A stretch of 57,610 nt of DNA from Bdellovibrionales bacterium (GTDB lineage Bacteria > Bdellovibrionota > UBA1018 > CAIMNF01): contig JAGWXK010000003.1 in assembly GCA_018969905.1 (NCBI GenBank), positions 1 to 57,610 of the forward strand, read 5' to 3'. This document shows, in pieces, positions 39,285-47,599 of the stretch. The position numbers and the translations under genes are program-made. The notes beneath the pieces were generated by a model. The model did not search any database and was not told the origin of the DNA. It was given only the letters and a program-made list of their open reading frames with translations. Numbering within the stretch: the stretch's first letter is position 1; each line of letters starts with the position of its first letter.

Positions 39285-40382
39285 TCAAAGGAATTCAGGC
39301 AACTCAAGCCAAAGCTGCTCAGGTCCCGCGCGTCCGACCAAGTGGGATGCGGAAATTCCGGCAAGCCGTACCGGCCGGATTCCGGCTTCGGTCTTTTCAT
39401 GAAGAAGTTTGATGGCCTCCTGAAAGATCCTCTCTGCTGAATCGAGAGGCCTCTGAAGAGTGATGCTTCGAGTGATGGTTTCAAAGTTTCCATACCGGAT
39501 TTTCAGTGTGATGGTACGAGCCCGAAGATTTTCTTCCAACAGCGCATCCGATATCTCGACACAAAGTTCCCGGATCTCAGATTCGAGAGTGGTGATCGAT
39601 GTCATGTCTTTTTCAAAGGTTCGCTCGGCACCATAACTTTTTCGCTCCCAAATCGGGTCAACCCTGCGCATGTCAATTCCGTGGGCAAGTTCGTAGAGAA
39701 ACATTCCGTTGCTTCCGAGTGCGGCCTGAACCGAAGCGGGGGAGAGCTCGCGCAGTTCTCCTGCGGTTCTCACTCCGATCCGAAGGAGTGCGGCCTCGGT
39801 CGCAGGTCCGACTCCCCAGATCTTTGAAACCGGGAGGGGCGCGATGAAATCAAGCGCCTCCTCCGGCGGAATGATCGTAAGTCCATCCGGCTTTCGGTAA
39901 TCACTTGCAATTTTTGCAAGGAACAGGGTGGAAGCAACACCTGCCGATGCAGTTAGTTCAAGACGGTGTTTGATCTCTCGCTTGATCCGGATTGCGATTT
40001 TTCCGGCTAAAGGCTCATTCCACTTGTTCTCGGTCACATCGAGGTAAGCTTCATCGAGCGAGAGCGGTTCCACGAGGTCTGTCACCTCATGAAAAATCTC
40101 CCTGATTTTTTGGCTCGCCTCTTCATAGGCAGAAAACCTCGGGTGCACGAAGACACCGTTCGGACAGAGTCGCTTGGCCTTTGCGGTGCTCATGGCGGAC
40201 CTTACCCCGAAGGCGCGGGCCTCATAAGAGCAGGCCGCAACCACCCCCCGACTGTCAGGATCCCCCCCGACAATGACCGGACGACCTCGTAACGCGGGAT
40301 GATCCCTTTGTTCTACCGAAGCATAAAAGGCATCCATGTCGACGTGGATGATTTTTCTTGGATCTGTGTTCAATTCCGGCAT
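39285..40382 (-). CDS. dinB: DNA polymerase IV
   Basis: HVDMDAFYASVE, SYEARAFG, SLDEAYLD and AKIASD motifs. Confidence 0.97.
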   Translation of the reverse strand: MPELNTDPRKIIHVDMDAFYASVEQRDHPALRGRPVIVGGDPDSRGVVAACSYEARAFGVRSAMSTAKAKRLCPNGVFVHPRFSAYEEASQKIREIFHEVTDLVEPLSLDEAYLDVTENKWNEPLAGKIAIRIKREIKHRLELTASAGVASTLFLAKIASDYRKPDGLTIIPPEEALDFIAPLPVSKIWGVGPATEAALLRIGVRTAGELRELSPASVQAALGSNGMFLYELAHGIDMRRVDPIWERKSYGAERTFEKDMTSITTLESEIRELCVEISDALLEENLRARTITLKIRYGNFETITRSITLQRPLDSAERIFQEAIKLLHEKTEAGIRPVRLAGISASHLVGRAGPEQLWLELPEFL

Positions 40383-41855: not shown

Positions 41856-42095
41856 GGTGGCTCCTTTGGGGTCCGATTGTGTTGATTTGTGTCATGCTCA
41901 CCGGTTTTCTTCCGGAAAACAAGGCCTAAACTTGTATGGATTTTGATTTTTTGGATCAGAAACAACCCCGATAAAACAATGTAATTATCCGAATTCATTT
42001 GGTTTTTTTAAATGCATCCCCAATGGTTACGGAGGGGGGCGTTTTTTTCGCTCAAGTTTTTTTGACGCTTTCCGATACGTCCATTGGTGAATCGT

Positions 42096-43094
42096 ATGAA
42101 AAGAAAAATTTCGAATGGTTTTGGCACTTCGGTCTTAATTCTCGCTCTGATGATTCTGAGCGCTTGTACCTCATCCATGGAACTCGAGGACGGGGATTAC
42201 TCCGGAGATGAAACAGTAGCGACTACCGAGGGTGAAGAAGCTGCTCCTGCGGATGCAGTACCCGGAGAGGAACTGGCCGCCGGTGACGCCAAATCCTCCG
42301 AACCGCTTTCACCGGATTCGAACATCGGATCTGATGGAAATCCCGAACTGGAACTTGCGGCCGGTGCGGCCGCCAAGAATGACGCAAAATCCGATGCTGT
42401 TGCCAGTACGGATTCACCGATAGGGGCCTCCGAGGAGACGGCCGTAAAGGATGCGGCTCCGGTGGAGGAGCTTCCACCTCTTGATTTGGCTACGGATTCC
42501 GCTTTGCCGCCTCCCTCTGATGTGGATGTGACTCCCAAAGTGGTAACTCCGGGGACGAAGACAGAAGTTGCCTCGGCATCTCCAGAAGTTCCTGTTGAAA
42601 CTCCATTGGCGCAGACCCCCGATTCTTCAAGCACTGCACCGAAACAAACGGTTGCCTCCACCGATACTCCGGGTGGAGATGGGGTTTCCTATACGGTTCA
42701 GAAGGGTGATACCCTCATGAAGATTTCCTGGGAGCAATACGGCGATCTTTTTCGATGGCGCGAGATCTATGCTCTGAATAAGTCAAAAATCGCAGATCCG
42801 AACAATGTGCCACCGGGTACAGTGATCCAAATTGCGGGTCAGGGCCGGAGTCCGGCATCAGCAATGGAGCGCAATGGTGAGCAATATCTCATTGTGTTCG
42901 GTGACACCCTTGGGAAAATTTCCGGGAAGGTGTACGGCAGCATGGGTAAGTGGAAGAAGATCTGGGAAAACAACAAGCGTCTGATTCGCGATCCGAACAA
43001 GATCTATGCTGGATTCTACCTGTACTACGTTCCAGAGGCGAAAATGACTTCGCGCGAGGAGGATGCCGACTCCTCTGAGCCCTTGGATTCCTAA
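42096..43094 (+). CDS. Lipoprotein with acidic linker and two LysM domains
   Basis: Lipobox LSAC; YTVQKGDTLMKIS and YLIVFGDTLGKIS LysM repeats. Confidence 0.9.
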   Translation: MKRKISNGFGTSVLILALMILSACTSSMELEDGDYSGDETVATTEGEEAAPADAVPGEELAAGDAKSSEPLSPDSNIGSDGNPELELAAGAAAKNDAKSDAVASTDSPIGASEETAVKDAAPVEELPPLDLATDSALPPPSDVDVTPKVVTPGTKTEVASASPEVPVETPLAQTPDSSSTAPKQTVASTDTPGGDGVSYTVQKGDTLMKISWEQYGDLFRWREIYALNKSKIADPNNVPPGTVIQIAGQGRSPASAMERNGEQYLIVFGDTLGKISGKVYGSMGKWKKIWENNKRLIRDPNKIYAGFYLYYVPEAKMTSREEDADSSEPLDS

Positions 43095-43185
43095 GGATAG
43101 GGCTCATTTGTCTCTTTGAGGAGCATTGTTGACTTCTTGATCTTTTCGTTCGTTCTGTTTTACGCAATTTAACCGATTCACAGAC

Positions 43186-43201
43186 TGGCATGACTCCTGC
43201 T
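43186..43201 (+). promoter_or_regulatory. Putative sigma-54 promoter for the downstream RNA
   Basis: TGGCATGACTCCTGCT (GG-N10-GC); predicted +1 near 43212, at the start of a hairpin. Confidence 0.55.
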
Positions 43202-43244
43202 TTATAGGAATCCGTCACCGACGAAAGAAGGTGATGGAGAAACA

Positions 43245-44020
43245 GCAGCGATGCTCGTTCTTTTTCTTGTGGGTTGAAGTCCCATCGATGGAGTCCTTCG
43301 GTTGCCATCGTAGTGCCTGTTCTTTTCGAGGTCCGGCAACGGAATTCGGAAATGCAGAACAGGAAACGCTTGATGAATCGTTTCATCAGGCAACGAAGGG
43401 CCCGGTTGTAGCGAAAGCGAAACTCGTGGAATGTACATTTCCGCTCTCTGAAGCGATGAGAACGGAAGCAAAGGGCCGAGCCAGGATGAACCTTGGTGAA
43501 CGCCAGTGTCAGGAGTCAAGAACCGAATGAGCCGGACTCCAGGACTTTGCGTACAAGAGAGGACAACAGGGTCTGGAAGAAAGAGAATCAAGGCACGGAA
43601 GCACTCTGGTCATCCTAGGTGAGCCTAGTTAATCAGCCTAGGAAACACGGTGATCGTGGTGATCGAGTGTGGCGGATGAGGTCGAGAAGCGGTAAAGCGC
43701 GAGGACCTCTGCGGTAAGATGTCGTGGACGTGGCTGGAGGAGTCGTTTTTTGTGGTAAACGAAAGGATTCTTCCTACCATGCCCGCAGCACCTTCAGTTG
43801 CGGCACCGGATGGATATCGACCGGTGTGAAGAAGGAAGGCAAACCCGCTCTGAGCGGATGAACCATCAAGGCTGGATAAGCCGGTTCAGGACGAGGGAAG
43901 GCCTCCTTTGAAAGCAAGCCGTTCAGCCGTATCGGGGAAAGCCCGACGTACGGAATGGGAAAAAAAGAGGATGGAAACGTCGGGTTGAGAGGCCCGGTCC
44001 GCGCCATCCTCTTTCTCCAT
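43245..44020 (+). ncRNA. ORF-less group II intron-like ribozyme RNA (domains I-VI)
   Basis: Domain V AGCCGTATCGGGGAAAGCCCGACGTACGGAAT (43925-43956) with AGC triad and AC bulge. DVI hairpin 43957-44020. DIII GAGGTC/GACCTC (43678-43709), J2/3 GGCGGA, DII GCACTC/GAGTGT, DI hairpins with a GCAA tetraloop. The 5' boundary is approximate. Confidence 0.82.
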
Positions 44021-44024
44021 TTTT

Positions 44025-44148
44025 AAGACTGCTGAAAAAATCCAATCTGCTGCGTCCAATGACCTGAATCTCATTCCGACGTACCGCGTGTACGTCTCAT
44101 TCGCTTCAGGTCATTGGCCTTCGCATCTTGGACTTTTTGAGCAGTCTT
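44025..44148. repeat. 124-bp imperfect palindromic element (REP/MITE-like)
   Basis: AAGACTGCT...AGCAGTCTT ends, inner CCAATGACCTGAA/TTCAGGTCATTGG arms, apical GACGTAC/GTACGTC; partial second copy at ~44158-44188. Confidence 0.8.
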
Positions 44149-44229
44149 TAGATTGGATGAAAAAATCCAATTTGCTGCGTCCAATGACGAACACCCGCGT
44201 CCGGGACTTCCATTATTTCGGGAGCGCAT

Positions 44230-44454
44230 TTACTCCTTCTGCTTTTTTGGGTGGTGCGCGCATTTTCCGTGTTTGCAGTGGCCCTTTGCGCAATCGCACT
44301 CCTGGCAGGTACAGGAATCACCCTTTCCATCTGCGCACTTTTGCTGACAGGCCTCATCGCAGGTGCATTCCGAGGCGTAAGCGCCACCGGGTTGAAATGC
44401 GAGTAAATTCGCGAACATCAGCCCATAAAACCAGTTTCGATTGAATTTCTTCAT
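44230..44454 (-). CDS. Secreted Cys/His-rich small protein (metallothionein-like)
   Basis: Signal peptide ending in AYA; 47-aa mature part with 10 Cys (CxC motifs) and 4 His; GAGGAG SD. Confidence 0.78.
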   Translation of the reverse strand: MKKFNRNWFYGLMFANLLAFQPGGAYASECTCDEACQQKCADGKGDSCTCQECDCAKGHCKHGKCAHHPKKQKE

Positions 44455-44478
44455 GATGAAATTCTCCTCTCGAGGTCA

Positions 44479-44537
44479 TTTACGGGGCTCATATCTTCTT
44501 TGTGACAGAGTCACAAAATTTTGCTTCCATCCGTAAA
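44479..44537. promoter_or_regulatory. Back-to-back ECF-type promoters GTCACA-N15-CCGTAAA
   Basis: The same bipartite motif occurs on the + strand (44510-44537) and the - strand (44506-44479). Confidence 0.75.
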
Positions 44538-44556
44538 ACAAGTAGAAAGGATCGGG

Positions 44557-45105
44557 ATGAAATCGAAACTCAGTGAACTCGATGAAAAAGCGCTTCTCTT
44601 GCGGTATGCAAAGGGCGATGAGGCTGCGTTTCGGGTGTTCTATGAGCGGGTTTCCCCGAAAATCTGGTCTTTCGTGAAAAAGCGTATTTCAAGCCTGCCT
44701 GAGGCAGAAGAAATTTATCAGGAAGCCTGGACCAAGATCCACCGTTTTCGGGATCGCTACGATCCCAATCTTGAGCCTCTCCCTTGGATCTACACCATTA
44801 CCCGATCCGTTTTGACGGATCGGATGCGAGCGGTAAGTGCGGTGCTTGAAACGGCATTTGATCCAAGCGCCTTGGAACAGAGAAGCAACTCGTTGGTGGT
44901 GGTTGAACCGAGCAACGATGGGGCTCGGACCGGGGAACTGGAGCAAGTCCTCTCGGCTCTTCCAGAAGATCAACGCGAGCTTCTTCAAAAGAGGTACGAT
45001 CAGGATTTGAGTTTTGAGCAAATTGCAACGAGCTTCGGAGTACGCCAGGAAACCATTCGAAAACGAATCAGCCGAATTTTACAAAAAATGAGGAGGTCAG
45101 TATGA
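44557..45105 (+). CDS. ECF RNA polymerase sigma factor
   Basis: GDEAAFRVFY, AEEIYQEAW, WIYTITR and region-4 HTH (SFEQIA...TIRKRISR). Confidence 0.92.
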   Translation: MKSKLSELDEKALLLRYAKGDEAAFRVFYERVSPKIWSFVKKRISSLPEAEEIYQEAWTKIHRFRDRYDPNLEPLPWIYTITRSVLTDRMRAVSAVLETAFDPSALEQRSNSLVVVEPSNDGARTGELEQVLSALPEDQRELLQKRYDQDLSFEQIATSFGVRQETIRKRISRILQKMRRSV

Positions 45106-45650
45106 CAAGGCGGAAGCTAAATCGTGAGGGCTCTGGATACTCTGAGTTTCTCTCCGGATCCGAGGTCGTGCCCGAAGGTCTCCATGAGCGAGTGCGGGCG
45201 GAGCTAGAAGCCAGGATGAAACCTTCATTTTTTCGAATCCTTTTTTCCATTCTGAAAGCACAAATCATCTTGGGTGCATTGACTCTTCTTGTGTGTCCCC
45301 AGTTTGGAATCGGACCCTTGGGGGGAGGAGATGGTCTCATGGGATGGGTAGAGTCCTATGGGCATCTGATCTGTGGTACCTACTGCGGGTCGATTTTTGT
45401 TGGCCTCAATGTTCTGTATGCAAGGTTCTTTTTGCCTCTTGATGATCGGAATGCGATTCGCTCAGAGCCCATGCTCCCGTTTGGAGTCCTCGGAGTGATT
45501 TCATTTTCTCTCATCGTGATGGTCTCTTTGATGTGGAATGGAATTGTGCCGCATCTACATGCTGAATTTGTGGGCGGGTGGCTTTTCGCATTTCTCTGGA
45601 TTCCGCTAGTTGGGCTGCGCCTTGGGTTCCGCGGGAGAGTCTCGGAATAA
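45102..45650 (+). CDS. Membrane anti-sigma factor candidate
   Basis: Overlaps the sigma stop codon; about 4 TM segments; CPQFG and HLICGTYC motifs. Confidence 0.7.
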   Translation: MTRRKLNREGSGYSEFLSGSEVVPEGLHERVRAELEARMKPSFFRILFSILKAQIILGALTLLVCPQFGIGPLGGGDGLMGWVESYGHLICGTYCGSIFVGLNVLYARFFLPLDDRNAIRSEPMLPFGVLGVISFSLIVMVSLMWNGIVPHLHAEFVGGWLFAFLWIPLVGLRLGFRGRVSE

Positions 45651-46891: not shown

Positions 46892-47599
46892 CTAGGAGCC
46901 AGAATAATTCCGAACGAGGCCCACCAAAACCCCTTGAATCTCAAAGCGATCTCCTTCTTGAACTGGAATGATAGGGTACTTGGGATTTGCGGGAAGGAGT
47001 GCATACCCCGTTTTGGTTTTTTGAAGACGCTTTAAGGTAGCCTCTCCGTTCAAAAGCGCGGCTACGGTTTCTCCTGGCCTTGCCTGATTCGTTTTTCGAA
47101 GGATGACCCAGTCTTCCGGCAAAATTCCATCTTCAATCATGGAATCCCCCCGAACCGTAAGCATGTAGAGCTCGCCTGGTCGCGCGCGTTTTGAACCAGA
47201 GAAAAGCGAATGAGGAATGCGCATGGGTTTGGGATCGGCAAATACCTCAATTGGATACCCTGCGGCGATGGTCCCGATAAGCGGAATGATTTCACTCTCG
47301 ATTGAATGAGATTCCCGCTCAAAGGGGGAGGAATCGCGCGCAGGGCTGGCATCGGTTTTGGCTAAAAAATGTTTTTTCGAACGCGCAGTCCATTGAAGCG
47401 CCCGACTTTCGCGGGTTTCGCCGCGCCTTAGATATCCTTTTTTTTCGAGCGCCTCAATGTGCTGTTGTATGGTTGCAGGCGAGGAGAGGCCAACCCCGGT
47501 TGCGATTTCCCTGCGAGATGGCATGGTTTGGTGGGTTTTGAGGTAAGCCTCAATCCACTCGAGAATCTGCTTTTGTTTTGGGGTAAGTGAACTTTCCAT
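46892..47599 (-). CDS. lexA: SOS repressor LexA
   Basis: LTPKQ...PSRREIA HTH, IAAG cleavage site, GDSM and ATLKR catalytic dyad. Confidence 0.96.
   Translation of the reverse strand: MESSLTPKQKQILEWIEAYLKTHQTMPSRREIATGVGLSSPATIQQHIEALEKKGYLRRGETRESRALQWTARSKKHFLAKTDASPARDSSPFERESHSIESEIIPLIGTIAAGYPIEVFADPKPMRIPHSLFSGSKRARPGELYMLTVRGDSMIEDGILPEDWVILRKTNQARPGETVAALLNGEATLKRLQKTKTGYALLPANPKYPIIPVQEGDRFEIQGVLVGLVRNYSGS

Follow-up and report, generated by a model that had tools for sequence, protein, structure and literature searches.

A group II intron-derived RNA, apparently domesticated behind a conserved sigma-54-type motif, in the Bdellovibrionales

How does a bacterial lineage come to keep the fold of a group II intron at a place where there is nothing to splice? 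The question is raised by a locus in a 57,610-nucleotide (nt) stretch of DNA from a Bdellovibrionales bacterium (contig JAGWXK010000003.1 of assembly GCA_018969905.1; the whole stretch is called the window below), in which an element of about 810 nt on the + strand, at ~43212-44024, shows domains I to VI (DI-DVI) in the order of a group II intron. The original prediction, made from the letters of the window, held that the element is no mobile intron but a domesticated ribozyme or large non-coding RNA (ncRNA) with a transcription unit to itself. Our comparative analysis bears this out; the developmental regulation that was also proposed is speculative. The locus is conserved across related genomes and preceded by a conserved sigma-54-type motif, its fold is under selection as judged from covariation, the genome carries rpoN, contigs from RNA libraries cover the element, and the family from which it descends consists of active introns whose splice determinants it has lost. 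We consider the element very probably a domesticated, non-splicing, stand-alone RNA gene and not a remnant, and the chance that the RNA is still catalytic, judged from sequence conservation, appears to us about even.

The window belongs to a 2.73-Mb metagenome-assembled genome (MAG; G000), and the other genomes and loci compared here (G and L labels) are likewise MAGs or single species representatives, so that kin are not independent. BLAST found the element in 11 of the 16 other genomes of the genus and in none of 24 genomes from other genera of the order; the identity of homologues drops to 66-83% in patches, and the flanks are unalignable. A mismatch-tolerant search for DV in 401 genomes of the phylum gave hairpin-forming matches only in the window's genus (g1), where 13 of 17 genomes have the RNA, including two copies in G005, and in genus g69 of another family. 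By both BLAST and this search, the RNA was not found in G006, G008, G012 and G013. Two-mismatch pattern matches outside g1 and g69, together with that in G012, were dismissed as chance, as they form no hairpin and a reversed-pattern control behaved similarly.

The strongest evidence for selection on the RNA comes from its base pairs. In an alignment of 12 genomes (A1) with a mean column identity of 65%, RNAalifold predicted 170 pairs, 166 of which were retained for covariation control. Within these, 96.1% of cells are paired compared with 78.8% in shuffles, and two-sided changes occur in 109 pairs compared with 68.2 +/- 4.0 in shuffles, a value that none of 500 shuffles reached. Sliding the partners by 1-3 columns left only 27-42 pairs with two-sided changes. 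Since the structure was derived from A1 itself, the fraction of cells paired favours the true over the slid pairing; the counts of pairs and of pair types are robust covariation measures, and these stand out too. A family-wide fold of 46 sequences likewise has compensatory pairs in every helix listed below. The covariation across homologues that had been proposed as a check is therefore present, and a decaying intron, raised in the original prediction as an alternative, is rejected given 109 compensated pairs and a promoter motif kept in 18 of 18 copies. The + strand folds beyond shuffles (z -5.9), as does the minus strand (z -5.1).

Coding provides no explanation for this conservation. No reading frame is conserved along the RNA in the 12 genomes, and DIV, predicted at about 200 nt without a reverse transcriptase (RT) open reading frame (ORF), is indeed without one. 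The 99-aa frame at 43231-43530 was rejected, as each of the other 11 genomes has 2-8 stops in that frame; the aligned region varies in length by non-multiples of 3, and long stop-free runs on the minus strand fall in differing frames.

Consensus folds from A1 and from the 46-sequence family alignment arrange six domains in canonical order round a central wheel, and recover the helices of the original prediction, supported by covariation, within a few bases of where it had placed them. The features of the locus are as follows.

43186-43201, + strand: sigma-54-type motif TGGCATGACTCCTGCT, with GG at 43187-88, N10, and GC at 43199-200
43213-43222/43227-43236, + strand: leader hairpin of 9 pairs, 6 changed on both sides across the 12 genomes
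43234-43242, + strand: leader segment AUGGAGAAA, complementary to the 3' tail and ending at the ancestral 5' junction between 43242 and 43243
43249-43597, + strand: domain I, with closing helices 43249-43255/43592-43597 and 43257-43267/43578-43588
43269-73/43281-85, + strand: DI helix GUGGG/CCCAU of the consensus fold
43286-90/43306-10, + strand: DI helix CGAUG/CAUCG of the consensus fold
43316-23/43356-63, + strand: DI helix CCUGUUCU/AGAACAGG, with inner hairpin 43324-35/43340-50
43480-43497, + strand: homologue of the exon-binding site 1 (EBS1) hairpin, with loop AUGAAC at 43486-91; match to the 5' flank lost
43598-43613/43659-43673, + strand: domain II, 13 of 20 pairs (helices 19, 20) changed on both sides
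43674-43677, + strand: junction between domains II and III (J2/3); the conserved block GGCGGAUGAGG spans J2/3-DIII
43678-43683/43704-43709, + strand: domain III, ~27 nt shorter than in mobile relatives
43712-43921, + strand: domain IV, ~200 nt, with closing helix 43712-15/43918-21
43923-43958, + strand: domain V, with AGC at 43925-27, bulge A43946 C43947 and loop GAAAG
43965-43974/44004-44013 and 43981-86/43991-96, + strand: domain VI-like hairpin, 8 of 10 and 4 of 6 pairs changed on both sides
44012-44020, + strand: 3' tail UUUCUCCAU, which can pair with leader 43234-42; a T-run (T5) follows at 44020-44024

Several of these features deserve comment. The leader hairpin, predicted as a 9-bp stem at the transcription start, lies just after the predicted +1 and is restricted to the window's lineage. 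In DI, the proposed alpha-alpha' pairing (43292-97/43541-46) is perfect in the window and shows compatible changes in G002 and G015, but it was not found in the G001 subclade, so that its support is partial. Compared with the mobile relatives, DII is shorter by ~15 nt; J2/3 is conserved across all lineages, and the closing and inner helices of DIV covary family-wide, with DIV ~70 nt shorter in the G001 subclade. DV has the AGC triad and AC bulge that had been read from the sequence; the triad G stands opposite A43954 and A43955, the usual wobble pair is absent, and 9 of 13 DV pairs are invariant in the 12 genomes. The same DV sequence is present in mobile relatives. Invariance of DV among the motif-scanned loci described below is partly built in, as the search pattern required DV, and independent evidence on DV comes from the 12 BLAST-found homologues and from the mismatch-tolerant search. 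The leader segment and the 3' tail (AUGGAGAAA/UUUCUCCAU) can form a helix of 9 bp in the window, with three one-sided changes (A to G) in which pairing with U is retained as G.U; as a pairing read from sequence, this helix is plausible but unproven. The T-run that had been likened to a terminator is there, and a simple scan called no terminator at the 3' tail.

The whole window had no match in Rfam at gathering scores. Of the covariance-model checks that had been suggested, the group-II-D1D4-4 model matches 43267-43416 with 46.6 bits (E 8.6e-9), below its gathering score of 49, and Intron_gpII (RF00029) has no match in the window even at E<=10 and none in G000. The original prediction had named the lack of a covariance-model match for DV as grounds for refutation. 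RF00029 formally gives that outcome, yet it is misleading, because the entire family, with its active mobile members, has a DV that deviates from the model. Matches to MIR860 and sR14 at loose E-values were rejected as chance, that to MIR860 being due to a palindrome at 44032-44140.

Those active members were recovered by a DV-motif scan of species genomes that returned at least 119 stretches; the counts of mobile copies given here are drawn from those listed, and the DV pattern biases sampling outside the window's genus. The matches listed come from Alphaproteobacteria, Acidobacteriota, Binatia, Myxococcota and others, as well as from MAGs labelled Bdellovibrio, Bdellovibrionales or Oligoflexia, and the DV variant in which the triad G faces two A marks a widespread family (loci L038-L117 among the at least 119 stretches). 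A profile built from the 12 sequences matched eight loci at full length, promoter included, whose flanks are those of genomes already compared; it also matched about 34 loci of other phyla at positions ~59-816, within ~810 nt. These 34 or so loci have the same ORF-less architecture without promoter and leader. The mobile relatives are homologous to the window RNA over ~760 nt, with DV and J2/3 alike. They begin G/UGCAGCG, carry a bulged A in DVI and end in ...CCCGAC. Directly upstream of the start, the 6 nt of the intron-binding site 1 (IBS1) pair with a hexamer in a hairpin loop, located at one alignment column, in 31 of 33 mobile copies; L097 and L115 are the exceptions, and at least 12 different covarying EBS1-IBS1 pairs occur among the 31. 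Because EBS1 covaries with the 5' flank, the mobile relatives must be working introns and the 5' junction is rightly placed; the ancestral junction in the window was set by homology with these copies, whose EBS1 matches the preceding 6 nt.

How these ORF-less introns move is suggested by their surroundings. Many sit inside an RT-encoding intron, between its DV and its DVI, forming a twintron, such that their 5' flank is a standard-looking DV (e.g. L115) and their 3' flank a DVI with a bulged A. Examples were noted at L040:2156-4907, L046, L087/L090, L115, L096 and L103, from Alphaproteobacteria and Acidobacteriota, and the EBS1 of an inner intron (CAGAUC) matches the DV-DVI junction of its host intron. 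A host intron of this kind begins with GUGCG and matches D1D4-6 at 182 bits, RVT_1 at E 3e-37 and, weakly, GIIM; across the RT-encoding host introns RVT_1 E-values run from 1e-32 to 1e-37, and in one genome a twintron unit of 2752 nt is repeated at 99.9% identity. The RT of the host intron could mobilise the nested ORF-less introns. Other mobile copies sit at UGAYC-type sites beside unrelated genes. The homologue at L040 matches D1D4-6 at 64.3 bits, over the gathering score of 49, and RF00029 does not detect L040 at E<=1. Seven DV matches in one MAG fall at the ends of contigs, suggesting that the assembly is broken by a high-copy element. Four alphaproteobacterial copies (L086, L092, L098, L089) follow ...UUGACC directly and have a similar hairpin-forming sequence ~35-45 nt upstream, suggesting a repeated or structured target context. 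At L045:6499-7987, a full ORF-less copy is followed by a partial second copy (profile positions 306-511 and 632-822), an arrangement that is tandem or recombined.

Measured against these introns, the clade of the window no longer has the elements required for splicing, namely G1, the EBS1-IBS1 match, the branch A, the 3' terminal nucleotide and exons worth joining. We distinguish type 1, the window's lineage (12 copies), type 2 (two copies in G005, and L082, which is from the same MAG as L066) and g69 (G044, G052, G173). The 5' end of the window reads CAGCAGCG where mobile relatives have GUGCAGCG, and the GUGYG or GU start, already reported as missing, is absent. Intron position 1 is an invariant G in mobile copies, variable in type 1, and A in type 2 and g69. 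At the column that holds EBS1 in mobile copies, 0 of 9 type-1 copies match their 5' flank. The mobile 3' end CCU-A-CCCGAC aligns with CUUUCUCCAU of the window, such that the branch A corresponds to U44014 and the terminal C to U44020; as predicted for the window, the DVI-like hairpin has no bulged A, and this holds for 12 of 12 type-1 copies. A comparison of conserved positions between mobile and sigma-54 lineages highlighted G1 (43243), the DV bulge base 43946 and the 3' terminal base 44020, and is little informative as the sampled mobile copies are too closely related. Type 1 has also gained features, namely the leader hairpin and the sequences GGAGA in the leader segment and UCUCC in the 3' tail, both of which are invariant in 12 of 12 genomes.

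A further feature, shared by all three lineages, lies upstream. The GG-N10-GC site that had been proposed as sigma-54-like is kept in 18 of 18 copies. It is present in 12 of 12 type-1 copies, 10 of which satisfy the strict motif TGG[CT]AY-N5-NTGCW, the other two being off only at the first T, and TGGCAY-N5-NTGCW precedes 6 of 6 type-2 and g69 copies. None of 32 mobile relatives has the strict motif upstream. The GC of the motif lies 23 nt before ancestral position 1 in type 2 and g69, and in the window the usual promoter spacing would put +1 at ~43212. Across the 2.7 Mb and both strands of G000, 41 sites match the motif, that at 43186 among them, against 21.2 predicted by base composition. G000 also has rpoN, a 501-aa open frame on contig C86 with a Sigma54_DBD match of 219.7 bits, and no sigma-70-type promoter was predicted in 43000-44300.

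In type 2, DVI is replaced by a GC hairpin and U-run directly after DV; with such a terminator-like hairpin there is no 3' exon. The leader can pair with the EBS1 loop over 8 bp in type 2 and 7 bp in g69. All three sigma-54 lineages would thus hold the strand 5' of the old junction in a predicted pairing, through two different partners. Type 1, type 2 and g69 each have a support of 1.0 and long branches in the tree, in which the mobile copies form a shallow clade; the tree was also tried as an arbiter between one and several origins, which it does not settle (0.53). Related forms are found in a second family of the phylum (g69), and type-2 copies have neighbours in common with the type-1 locus of G014/G015. 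Synteny of the RNA locus is kept within three subclades and differs between them.

Public sequencing runs provide evidence that the element is represented in RNA libraries. Twenty runs contain the stretch or part of it, 12 of them on record as RNA, and contigs from four RNA libraries, each of a different study, cover 43229-43946, the longest being 712 nt (43229-43940). No joint removing the element occurs in the contigs of these four libraries, which can miss rare forms. The flanks at 42700-43187 and 43981-44500 have no cover in the four libraries, which counts neither for a discrete transcript nor against DNA carry-over. Contigs start at 43244 and 43245 in two studies, 1-2 nt from the ancestral 5' junction, and stop at 43940-43946 in three studies; as to RNA ends these are uninformative, since they coincide with family-invariant blocks where assembly graphs branch. 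A joint 43425>43666 (side 22) in one run probably derives from a relative. A run of seven A at 43960-43966, on the 5' strand of DVI, could explain the presence of the RNA in the oligo-dT libraries of one study. In the RNA runs X4 and X10, contigs of up to 746 nt match only J2/3-DIII (43666-43709) or DV (43925-43956) before continuing into unlike sequence. Other family members must therefore occur in these soil and sediment RNA libraries.

The reading we prefer joins these observations into a working model. Sigma-54 RNA polymerase together with an enhancer-binding protein would start transcription near 43212, which would mean that the RNA is made only on signal. The leader hairpin and the 9-bp leader-to-tail helix (43234-42/44012-20) would close and protect the RNA ends, and the working molecule would be the full-length, unspliced RNA. 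It would be a Mg-dependent hydrolytic ribozyme, branching being excluded, in which the pairing of the leader may position either the leader junction or a trans substrate at the former active site, in the manner of protein-free HYER-type ribozymes. A hydrolytic ribozyme is suggested because DV and J2/3 are nearly frozen while the rest drifts, and because docking of the leader appears to be kept by two independent solutions. Taken whole, with catalysis included, the statement that this domesticated RNA gene is still a Mg-dependent hydrolytic ribozyme stands at roughly even chances. A bolder version is put forward tentatively and is on present evidence doubtful: a host-adopted, sigma-54-switched, protein-independent catalytic RNA gene, in at least three Bdellovibrionota lineages with differing ways of holding the leader, might cut its docked leader junction or use the leader as substrate or guide on other nucleic acids, for example in predation or defence.

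A number of points weigh against the catalytic gene, or against parts of it. Catalysis is argued from conservation, and because DV also organises the fold its invariance would be no proof of chemistry; the triad G faces two A in place of its usual wobble partner, and RF00029 detects no DV/DVI. The EBS1-equivalent loops of type 1 differ (AUGAAC, UUAAAC, GUGAAA, AUGUAA, GUGAAG, GUAAAA), variation between species that would be unexpected in a guide aimed at one fixed target. No two-sided changes occur in the leader-to-tail helix, its GGAGA/UCUCC cores being invariant. Start site, transcript ends and dependence on sigma-54 are inferred from sequence, and the RNA data are contigs, silent on strand, ends and level, from libraries that can contain DNA. 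The split between mobile and sigma-54-driven copies has a support of 0.53, so that a single origin is not shown, and the RNA, which was not found in 4 of 17 genomes of the genus, is on that account dispensable.

The reading that gains most from these points is that the RNA is domesticated and no longer catalytic, its group II fold serving as a rigid scaffold, for example in protein binding or sequestering or as a regulatory or storage RNA, with DV conserved for holding the fold together. We regard this as a substantial possibility that falls short of being probable. All evidence for domestication fits it equally well, as do the loss of both splice sites and the branch point, the unconserved sequence of the type-1 EBS1-like loop and the missing partner of the DV triad G, and other large bacterial ncRNAs act as assemblies rather than enzymes (PMC12990946). 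However, mobile relatives with the identical unusual DV splice and retarget, which makes this DV compatible with chemistry; the pairing of the strand 5' of the old junction by two solutions is easier to explain if the junction still matters; and no partner-protein gene is linked to the RNA, whose neighbours vary between subclades. Self-splicing by a hydrolytic pathway within a tiny non-coding transcript, the product being a ligated leader-tail or a freed linear intron, is improbable. Type 2 and g69 have kept an EBS1-IBS1 match with the leader, DV and J2/3 are intact, and a first step by hydrolysis needs no branch A, as is established for group II introns (PMC12990946). Yet the type-2 terminator hairpin directly after DV leaves no 3' exon, type 1 is without G1, the 3' terminal nucleotide and EBS1-IBS1, a ligated product would be ~35 nt with conserved content only in its paired segments, and the RNA-library contigs, from which rare forms can escape, include no joint that removes the element.

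Two further explanations dispense with a stand-alone gene. A cis-regulatory role for a neighbouring gene, as a long structured 5' leader or otherwise, could be imagined from G014 and G015, where a same-strand alpha/beta-hydrolase gene begins ~45 nt past the RNA, and from the window, where a gene for an extracytoplasmic function (ECF) sigma factor lies ~500 nt downstream on the same strand; it is nevertheless most improbable, as the neighbours vary between subclades, the downstream gene of the G001 type is convergent, a palindromic repeat and a minus-strand ORF intervene in the window, and type 2 ends in a GC hairpin and U-run. Least credible of all, to the point that we give it almost no weight, is a neutrally evolving, decaying remnant of a once-mobile ORF-less intron. 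Its altered ends, the lack of an ORF and of an intron-encoded protein (IEP) in the genome, and its absence from 4 of 17 genomes of the genus would suit a remnant. Against this stand the pairing of 96.1% of cells in an alignment with a mean column identity of 65%, the 109 compensated pairs, an RNA conserved between unalignable flanks, a promoter motif present in all 18 copies, the conservation of features that particular lineages have gained (leader hairpin, tail helix, terminator), and RNA-library contigs from four studies that cover the element.

The domesticated, possibly catalytic RNA gene that we favour can be set beside several known systems. HYERs (hydrolytic endonucleolytic ribozymes) were reportedly first described by Liu et al. 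in Science in 2024. Two papers (10.1101/2024.08.31.610620; PMC12990946) place them among the class IIC group II introns, as members that have no ORF and act as hydrolytic nucleases. Like the window RNA, they are in these texts protein-free, group II-derived RNAs without an ORF and with no need of a maturase gene; they measure 600-800 nt, their action is taken to be hydrolytic rather than by branching, and the presumed hydrolysis of the window RNA is likened to it. In contrast, HYERs are described there as class IIC with a 6-nt target site read by EBS1, whereas the window RNA best matches D1D4-4/D1D4-6 and has lost a usable EBS1; it differs as well in its conserved sigma-54 promoter, leader hairpin and leader-tail helix, and in an AGC triad with an unusual partner, the comparison with HYERs being by description only. 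Nor do its AGC triad, its ~780 nt and its matches to D1D4-4/-6 seem to point to class IIC, on a tentative link between these models and the intron classes.

Closer in sequence are the mobile ORF-less introns and twintrons (cf. PMC4424553), which resemble the window RNA in domain order, DV, J2/3 and the lack of an ORF. They are multi-copy, start with GUGCA, have an EBS1 matched to their site and a bulged A, and end in ...GAC, none of which applies to the window RNA; they also often lie inside an RT-encoding intron, whereas the window's genome has no such RT-maturase. C.te.I1 of Clostridium tetani is, according to the review PMC4424553, the only known independent ORF-less bacterial intron, and resembles the window RNA as an ORF-less group II RNA in a genome without a related IEP; C.te.I1 self-splices and joins coding exons, whereas the window RNA has neither splice-site consensus nor exons. 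The same review holds that bacterial group II introns are selfish retroelements whose non-mobile derivatives "do not persist long", and that ORF-less introns in bacteria are rare and short-lived, a related IEP being present in nearly every case (PMC4424553). The intron-derived RNA of the window has been maintained across a genus, with related forms in another family of the phylum, its splice sites lost and its fold under selection.

OLE, ROOL, GOLLD and raiA are large stand-alone structured bacterial ncRNAs. The window RNA is likewise long, structured, conserved, apparently with its own transcription, and of a function that is unknown or non-standard. To our knowledge none of these four RNAs derives from a group II intron, and the window has no Rfam match to ncRNAs of this kind at gathering score. 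OLE and ROOL are tabulated as large bacterial ncRNAs, together with ARRPOF, in PMC12990946. A more distant comparison is with the spliceosomal U2/U6 small nuclear RNAs (snRNAs), whose descent from group II domains is an established hypothesis (PMC4424553). There, too, the catalytic RNA of an intron would have become a host gene with its own promoter and no self-excision, although the parallel is by analogy only. If the window RNA is indeed a catalytic host gene, it would be a prokaryotic parallel to the intron-to-snRNA step.

What the host has taken over here would be the ribozyme itself and not the reverse transcriptase, a step rarely seen in bacteria. The RNA thus offers a testable system for asking what a group II catalytic core does for a cell once freed from splicing, and its family provides candidates for natural, compact, maturase-free ribozymes of the kind now explored as programmable nucleases. 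There are also consequences for intron surveys. Those that use DV motifs would miss unusual DVs, as PMC4424553 notes, and a recent pipeline locates DV/DVI with RF00029 (PMC8919778). Surveys based on RF00029 are blind to this entire family, with its hundreds of active ORF-less copies and its DV/DVI twintrons in soil bacteria, and since the family escapes this model ORF-less introns may be under-counted. Searches of openly accessible article texts turned up no description of a group II-derived ncRNA that is driven by sigma-54 or comes from Bdellovibrio.

The surroundings of the RNA complete the description of the locus. The gene order is DinB-type polymerase, unknown gene, TRL-like gene, LysM gene (42084-43094, Pfam LysM), the RNA, palindromic repeat, a minus-strand ORF of 74 aa, ECF sigma factor, major facilitator superfamily transporter and LexA. 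The RNA is hence intergenic, between the LysM gene and the repeat element, and as predicted no host ORF is interrupted. No RT, maturase or enhancer-binding protein gene is linked to it among the neighbours in the window. A genome-wide check for an RT or maturase in trans and for further copies had been suggested: G000 has no GIIM domain and thus no group II maturase for the RNA, RF00029 is without a match genome-wide, and the RNA is single copy, only the downstream palindrome recurring in the genome. Two RVT_1 genes, C30:41772-42425 and C92:23781-24410, lie on other contigs than the RNA and lack a maturase domain; in PADLOC they match best to a generic RT and to UG26 and UG4 of the DRT type. 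With no GIIM, no RF00029 match and RVT_1 genes that are generic or DRT-like and unlinked, the idea that an RT encoded in G000 serves the RNA in trans was rejected.

The palindromic repeat element (44016-44188) adjoins the 3' end of the RNA. Its inverted arms, 44016-44068 and 44105-44157, are 79% complementary, and it contains a 31-nt direct repeat (44033-44063 = 44158-44188, 97%). Copies with 71-79% identity lie on four other contigs of G000 (C102, C174, C138, C147). The element is REP- or MITE-like and could act as a terminator. The ECF sigma gene ~500 nt downstream of the RNA is accompanied by an overlapping 182-aa ORF (44521-45650), possibly an anti-sigma factor. Finally, the DinB-type translesion polymerase (39285-40382) and LexA (46892-47599) are each encoded less than 4 kb from the RNA, on opposite sides.

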